Sequence record: MW630116.1
From: Escherichia phage vB_EcoM-ZQ3
Reading direction: 5' to 3' (one strand)
Length of the DNA stretch: 64,000 nt
A program made the position numbers and the translations under genes. Below are positions 35,081 through 35,766 of the stretch, in pieces. How positions within the stretch are numbered: the stretch's first letter is position 1; the number at the start of each line of letters is the position of its first letter. Under the pieces are notes generated by a model. The model was given only the letters and a program-made list of their open reading frames with translations. It was not told the origin of the DNA and searched no databases.

Positions 35081-35311
35081 ATGTCTACTGAAACTATCGA
35101 AAAACTGCAGTCTGAAATCGTTACTCTGAAATCTCGCATTCTTGATACTCAAGACCAAGCAGCTGCTATCCAGCAAGAATCTCAACAACTCGGTAGTGCT
35201 CTTGCTAAAATCGCTAATCTGGTTGGTATCACTGGCGAATCAGTTAAGATTGATGACCTGGTAGAAGCAGTACGTGAACTTGTTAAAGCTGAAACCACAG
35301 AAGAAGAATAA
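35081..35311 (+). CDS. 57A: tail fibre assembly chaperone gp57A
   Basis: 76 aa coiled-coil peptide; ILDTQDQAA motif as recalled. Confidence 0.85.
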
Positions 35312-35766
35312 TGAAATTTGAGGACTTTTCACAAGGCCTCTACGTCGCAGCTAAATTTTCGGAATTAACACTTGATGCGCTGGAAGACCTCCAGCGCAAA
35401 TTAAGAATTCCTAATCCAGTACCACGTGAAAAGCTTCATTCAACAATTTGTTATTCACGTGTAAACATACCATATACTACATCTAGTGGTAGTTATTCTG
35501 TTGCCGAATCAGGACACTTTGAGGTATGGAAAACTGACGACGGCGCTGTACTGGTTTTAGTTCTTGATTCTGAATATCTTAGATGTCGTCATCAGTATGC
35601 ACGAGCTTTAGGTGCTACTCATGATTTCGACGACTACACTCCACATATAACGTTATCATATAACGTTGGCCAACTATCATTCAGTGGTGATGTAGCTATT
35701 CCGGTTATTCTCGACCGTGAATACAAAGAACCCTTAAAACTAGATTGGGCCGAAGATCTAAAATAA
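35311..35766 (+). CDS. 57B: gp57B, 2H phosphoesterase (Acb1-type anti-CBASS nuclease)
   Basis: 151 aa; two H-x-T motifs (HSTI, HITL) typical of 2H phosphoesterases; position after 57A. Confidence 0.8.

Follow-up and report, generated by a model that had tools for sequence, protein, structure and literature searches.

Many public genome records label the product of gene 57B in T4-like phages an RNA ligase or a hypothetical protein. Is it instead an enzyme that destroys the cyclic-nucleotide signals of the bacterial CBASS defense? We have analyzed this question for Escherichia phage vB_EcoM-ZQ3, in a stretch of 64,000 nucleotides from sequence record MW630116.1 that we call the window. An initial annotation had read the gene in the 57B position as a 2H phosphoesterase of the Acb1 type, with T4 gp57B as the founding Acb1. 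The place given to T4 gp57B is borne out: a 3'3'-cGAMP-degrading activity was purified from T4-infected cells, traced to gene 57B (NP_049750.1), and named Acb1 (Hobbs et al., Nature 2022, PMC9117128).

The gene in the window is the Mosigvirus (RB69-group) coliphage ortholog of T4 gene 57B, and it is an ordinary intact copy of an already-known gene. Acb1 has been known since 2022, it has a Pfam family of its own as well as crystal structures, and the identical protein is already present in deposited phage genomes.

The open reading frame and its numbering

The initial annotation had placed an open reading frame (ORF) with the motifs HSTI and HITL at 35311-35766. Both the ORF listing and a direct reading of the sequence agree with it: the two motifs are present and the ends of the ORF are exact. 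The distance from HSTI to HITL is 69 residues, and in each of them the H-x-T is followed by a hydrophobic residue, as in the 2H phosphoesterase superfamily. The coordinates of the gene, of its functional residues, and of its neighbors are given in Table 1.

A difference in the start site affects how these residues are numbered. T4 57B is annotated with 459 nt and 152 aa, starting from the first ATG of ATGATG (74405-74410), where the window has ATAATG (35308-35313). Thus, residue numbers in the window Acb1 are one below the published T4 numbers; when the T4 ORF is read from the equivalent ATG, its histidines are H43 and H112, and not H44 and H113.

Table 1. Position of acb1, of its functional residues (window numbering, with T4 numbering in brackets), and of the neighboring genes in the window.
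Feature	Position	Strand	Description	Evidence or source
gp2	32780-33601	+	DNA end protector	synteny with annotated records
gp3	33698/33704-34288	+		
gene 1	34342-35076	+	dNMP kinase	PF21448, E = 1.2e-96
gene 57A ortholog	35081..35311	+	tail-fiber chaperone	PF17594 GP57, E = 5.9e-23
acb1 (gene 57B ortholog)	35311..35766	+	ATG ORF, 151 aa (151 codons plus stop); predicted 2H-phosphoesterase-type cyclic-oligonucleotide phosphodiesterase	function by homology
Y11 (T4 Y12)	35341..35343	+	nucleobase stacking; same in window, T4, and FBB1	role from PMC9117128
H43-S-T45-I (T4 H44/T46)	35437..35448	+	first catalytic motif, residues 43-46; aligns with T4 HST and FBB1 HTT	role from PMC9117128
W73 (T4 W74)	35527..35529	+	nucleobase stacking; same in T4, F in FBB1	role from PMC9117128
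F106 (T4 F107)	35626..35628	+	nucleobase stacking; same in T4, Y in FBB1	role from PMC9117128
H112-I-T114-L (T4 H113/T115)	35644..35655	+	second catalytic motif, residues 112-115; aligns with T4 HIT and FBB1 HIT	role from PMC9117128
E140 (T4 E141)	35728..35730	+	adenine N6 contact, basis of the adenosine requirement; same in window, T4, and FBB1	role from PMC9117128
W146 (T4 W147)	35746..35748	+	stacking residue of the C-terminal lid, which shuts on the substrate; same in window, T4, and FBB1	role from PMC9117128
ipI ortholog	35843..36130	+	internal protein I	PF11634 IPI_T4, E = 3.2e-50; 87% identical to T4 IPI; phrog_4363

Family assignment and conservation of the active site

In Pfam, the only significant family for the acb1 product is PF23474, "Anti-CBASS protein Acb1", with a score of 197.3 bits (the cut-off is 27) and an E-value of 1.3e-58. 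The match takes residues 8-149 of the protein and the entire profile (1-144 of 144). A phmmer search against all PDB chains reports structures 7T26 and 7T27, those of the Acb1 of Erwinia phage FBB1, at E = 1.1e-58; the alignment includes both H-x-T motifs. It also reports a distant Acb1 of 165 aa (9Q2G) at E = 0.007, with the His motifs in register. NCBIfam gives no match for Acb1, for IPI, or for the second internal-protein-like ORF that is described below; this collection targets bacterial and archaeal proteins, so that result is uninformative.

We have aligned the window protein with T4 gp57B and FBB1 Acb1 using MAFFT. Identity to T4 gp57B is 85.4% (129/151, with no gaps), and identity to FBB1 Acb1 is 63% (88/140). 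The 22 substitutions relative to T4 are mostly conservative, and none of them occurs at a named functional residue: the nine such residues (Y11, H43, T45, W73, F106, H112, T114, E140, and W146) are all aligned and kept between the window and T4. The initial annotation had named a failure of the catalytic histidines to align with those of Acb1 as what would speak against its reading. We observe that H43/T45 and H112/T114 match T4 H44/T46 and H113/T115, as well as the HTT and HIT of 7T26. The proposed identity as a 2H phosphoesterase of the Acb1 type is upheld by the family match together with the identities to both the T4 and the FBB1 proteins.

How widespread is the protein? Using tblastn, it is matched in 1,469 of 50,697 phage records. 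In 137 of these the identity is at least 99%, and phage BEU50 and E. coli O157 typing phage 6 are among those with a protein that is 100% identical. The genomes closest to the window are Mosigvirus (RB69-like Tevenvirinae). Compared to T4, the nucleotide identity of acb1 is 75%, with a dN of 0.126 and a dN/dS of 0.069 that is calculated over a saturated dS of about 1.8. The gene is under strong purifying selection and its reading frame is intact.

As for the structure, a single-sequence AlphaFold2 model of the protein (pLDDT 37, pTM 0.27) was unusable and we discarded it. Over 140 residues, however, the protein is 63% identical to the one crystallized in 7T26, and this argues for a compact 2H phosphoesterase fold in the window Acb1.

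How much information is there in the motifs themselves? We have compared them to 20,000 shuffles of the window Acb1 protein. At least two H-x-[ST] appear in 14% of the shuffles, at least two H-x-T in 2.3%, and at least two H-x-T each with a hydrophobic residue next in 0.3%. The six frames of the window contain 77 ORFs with 100 aa or more, and among them acb1 alone has two or more H-x-T. The pair of H-x-T/S motifs by itself is weak evidence for Acb1, only suggestive. It is because the family match is full length, and because both motifs are aligned by column to the catalytic motifs, that the Acb1 identity goes beyond chance.

Gene neighborhood and expression

The gene order 4-2-3-1-57A-57B-ipI is the same in the window, in T4, and in Mosigvirus records. 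The ORF does sit in the 57B position, as had been proposed, directly after the PF17594 homolog of 57A and before the ipI homolog. The TAA stop of 57A overlaps the ATG of acb1 by one base (TAATG, with junction gaagaaTAATGaaa), an arrangement also common to T4 and to Mosigvirus records, which suggests co-transcription and translational coupling of the two genes. A scan with sigma-70 and terminator consensus sequences finds 16 promoter-like sites around acb1, when 12.8 are expected from shuffles. The sigma-70 scan shows no convincing dedicated promoter directly upstream of acb1, which fits co-transcription with 57A.

Other candidate expression signals were observed nearby. Putative late-promoter-like sites (TATAAATA) are found at 32294 and 34719. 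The spacer between acb1 and ipI has, at 35780-35815 (+), a TTTACA-17-TACTAT that resembles an early promoter and is preceded by a TG. This site overlaps a hairpin with a 10-bp stem (AGGATGATGG ... CTATCATCCT), and the whole 76-nt spacer folds at -14.3 kcal/mol. The element could be a promoter for ipI, a structure for ending or processing the transcript after acb1, or both. About 2 kb downstream of acb1 there are three tRNA genes, Met-CAT (37962-38036), Asn-GTT (38043-38114), and Arg-TCT (38840-38915), all on the + strand. They lie where T4 has its cluster of eight tRNA genes.

Internal protein I is injected and inhibits the GmrS/GmrD restriction enzyme. The initial annotation had proposed several anti-defense genes within a few kb of each other; our analysis shows this for two, acb1 and ipI (the PF11634 match and the identity to T4 IPI are in Table 1). 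In T4, the adjacency of acb1 and ipI has been explicitly pointed out as an anti-defense cluster (Hobbs et al., PMC9117128).

Alternative readings of the gene

Many GenBank and RefSeq records, including that of T4 (NC_000866), would have the product be an RNA ligase or a LigT-like 2'-5' RNA ligase that acts on RNA ends. There is computational evidence of a kind behind it: the product matches phrog_755 "RNA ligase" at E = 2.4e-65, the label is carried by RefSeq T4 (NC_000866 T4p137) and by several recent genomes (many others use "hypothetical protein"), and there is a weak match to PF13563 2_5_RNA_ligase2 (E = 0.013, 15.9 bits), which reflects shared ancestry within the 2H superfamily. But that match is below the 27-bit cut-off and includes residues 70-131 only, against 197 bits over the full length for PF23474 Acb1, and PF13563 is accompanied by no other 2H family at Pfam E-values up to 10. 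The label itself traces to PHROG 755, a name passed down from the superfamily with no experiment behind it. The T4 protein, on the other hand, was purified by its activity, that of a cyclic-oligonucleotide phosphodiesterase, and there is a crystal structure of an Acb1 in complex with its ligand (PMC9117128); the Acb1 literature that we searched holds no report of ligase activity. We consider an RNA ligase very unlikely. Given the "RNA ligase" and "hypothetical protein" labels in public records, automated annotation would miss acb1 as an anti-defense gene.

The name of the gene invites another reading, that of an accessory factor for tail-fiber assembly working with gp57A. The gene is directly downstream of 57A with the TAATG overlap, and the linkage is kept across T4-like phages. 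Yet the gene name and this linkage are the sole basis for such a role, and co-transcription with unrelated genes is common in T4. In addition, the product of acb1 has the active site of a 2H phosphoesterase, and purifying selection acts on it; a T4 delta-acb1 phage was propagated, and PMC9117128 describes expression of T4 Acb1 as counteracting CBASS. A tail-fiber role is highly improbable. Could the ORF instead be a decayed, catalytically dead copy, or even a chance ORF with two H-x-T? The 14% of shuffles with two H-x-[ST] would allow for chance, and nudE in this same window carries a frameshift. The acb1 ORF, however, is full length without a frameshift, it keeps the nine functional residues, it has a dN/dS of 0.07 (over saturated dS), and copies that are 100% identical occur in other deposited phages. 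The conservation of residues and the dN/dS refute a dead or chance copy, to which we give next to no probability. The reading that we retain is Acb1.

Proposed mechanism

The biochemistry and structure of the enzyme are taken here from Hobbs et al. (PMC9117128). Crystal structures of FBB1 Acb1, without ligand (7T26) and in complex with 3'3'-cGAMP (7T27), show a 2H phosphoesterase fold with an HxT/HxT tetrad (H44/T46/H113/T115). The pocket is U-shaped and has a lid formed by the C-terminus. Residues Y12, W74, F107, and W147 stack on the substrate and E141 touches the adenine N6. The reaction is metal-independent; it proceeds in two steps via a cyclic phosphate and cuts 3' of adenosine. An H44A/H113A mutant is inactive. 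Nine further Acb1 homologs all cleave 3'3'-cGAMP and cAAA; in the text and supplements of that paper, we found no mention of an RB69 or Mosigvirus ortholog among the assayed proteins. A T4 delta-acb1 phage was made and propagated, and its lysate was compared with that of wild type for cyclic-nucleotide cleavage. The counteraction of CBASS by T4 Acb1 expression is part of the same work.

By orthology with the T4 and FBB1 proteins, we infer that the ORF at 35311..35766 is a Mosigvirus Acb1 that acts by destroying CBASS signals, and we hold this with high confidence; enzymatic activity, substrate range, and role in vivo are all argued from the sequence. The protein would be made in the infected cell as a small metal-independent 2H phosphoesterase. 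Its targets would be the second messengers, cyclic di- and trinucleotides, that the cGAS/DncV-like synthases of CBASS produce. The ligand would be held in the U-shaped pocket, with Y11, W73, F106, and W146 stacking on its bases while the C-terminal lid shuts, and E140 would select for adenosine by reading the adenine N6. In the strained ligand, the 2'-OH of the adenosine would attack the adjacent scissile 3'-5' phosphate over the H43/T45/H112/T114 tetrad. Acid-base catalysis would then open the ring via a 2',3'-cyclic phosphate to produce a linear 3'-phosphate such as GpAp. With the signal removed, the CBASS effectors (Cap4, Cap5, CapV, and others) would not be activated, and there would be no abortive infection.

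The substrates to expect under this mechanism are 3'3'-cGAMP, cAA, cUA, cAAA, and cAAG; cGG, 3'2'-cGAMP, and cA4 should be left intact. With its 22 differences from T4 Acb1, the protein may differ subtly in specificity. Could the Mosigvirus Acb1 have a shifted substrate range (for instance, to 3'2'-cGAMP or cGG, which T4 Acb1 cannot cleave), or be sensed differently by detectors of cyclic-nucleotide loss such as Panoptes? We regard this as very improbable. Against a shifted specificity, every named substrate-contacting residue is identical to that in T4.

Other genes in the window

A homolog of Vs.4/Acb2 is found at 51144-51407 (+). It has 65.5% identity to T4 Vs.4 by tblastn, and a match to the Acb2/Tad1 hairpin domain PF24729 at E = 4.2e-18. 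This is a phage with both of the known T4-type anti-CBASS genes, acb1 and, some 15 kb away, the acb2/vs.4 homolog. Since both are present, the phage should resist many CBASS systems.

The start MKT[YF]xEF, which we take to resemble the T4 internal-protein capsid-targeting sequence, appears in four ORFs, all on the + strand: ipI itself (35843-36130), 36200-36463, 48294-48575, and 49139-49441. The last one is ipII (93% to T4 IPII). The ORF at 36200-36463 encodes a small protein with an N-terminus of the internal-protein type that belongs to phrog_13302 and is without a Pfam match. The one at 48294-48575 also encodes a small protein without a Pfam match, and it is at the position that ipIII has in T4; the window has no ipIII homolog. 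Variable injected internal proteins such as these are candidates for anti-restriction roles.

Two other loci in the window differ from what is found in related phages. The gene denV (48634-49044, +, 91% identical) precedes ipII, an order that differs from that of T4, and just after ipII, at 49503-49562 (+), there is a stretch of 20 aa that resembles the C-terminal end of denV, with 70% identity (E = 6.6e-5), and that may be the remnant of a rearrangement. The nudE (Nudix hydrolase) homolog at 47317-47771 (+) is split over two frames, with the break at about 47534. Compared to phage AV116, one C is missing from a CCC run (GACCCTG has become GACCTG), which leaves an ORF of 76 aa that ends at 47547. 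The split could be either a real pseudogene or an error of sequencing or assembly.

Comparison with known anti-CBASS proteins

T4 Acb1 and the window protein have in common the 57A-57B-ipI position, the four catalytic residues of the HxT/HxT motifs, the aromatic residues that stack on the bases, E141, and the tryptophan of the C-terminal lid. They differ at the N-terminus, where the window protein lacks one residue, and in the 22 substitutions. With FBB1 Acb1, the window protein shares both HxT motifs, the tyrosine, the glutamate, and the lid tryptophan; in contrast, F and Y in FBB1 replace W73 and F106 of the window, aromatic for aromatic in both cases, and there is an insertion of one residue after window residue 79. 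Farther away, the distant Acb1 9Q2G/9Q2Y (165 aa) and the LigT/2'-5' RNA ligase family PF13563 have the two-HxT/S architecture in common with the window protein, but their similarity to it is only marginal, and its place is in the clade of the T4-type Acb1, apart from both. Finally, Acb2 (T4 Vs.4) serves the same purpose as Acb1, that of removing the signals of CBASS, but it does so with an unrelated fold and, according to PMC10312549 and PMC12657218, by sequestering the signal without hydrolysis.
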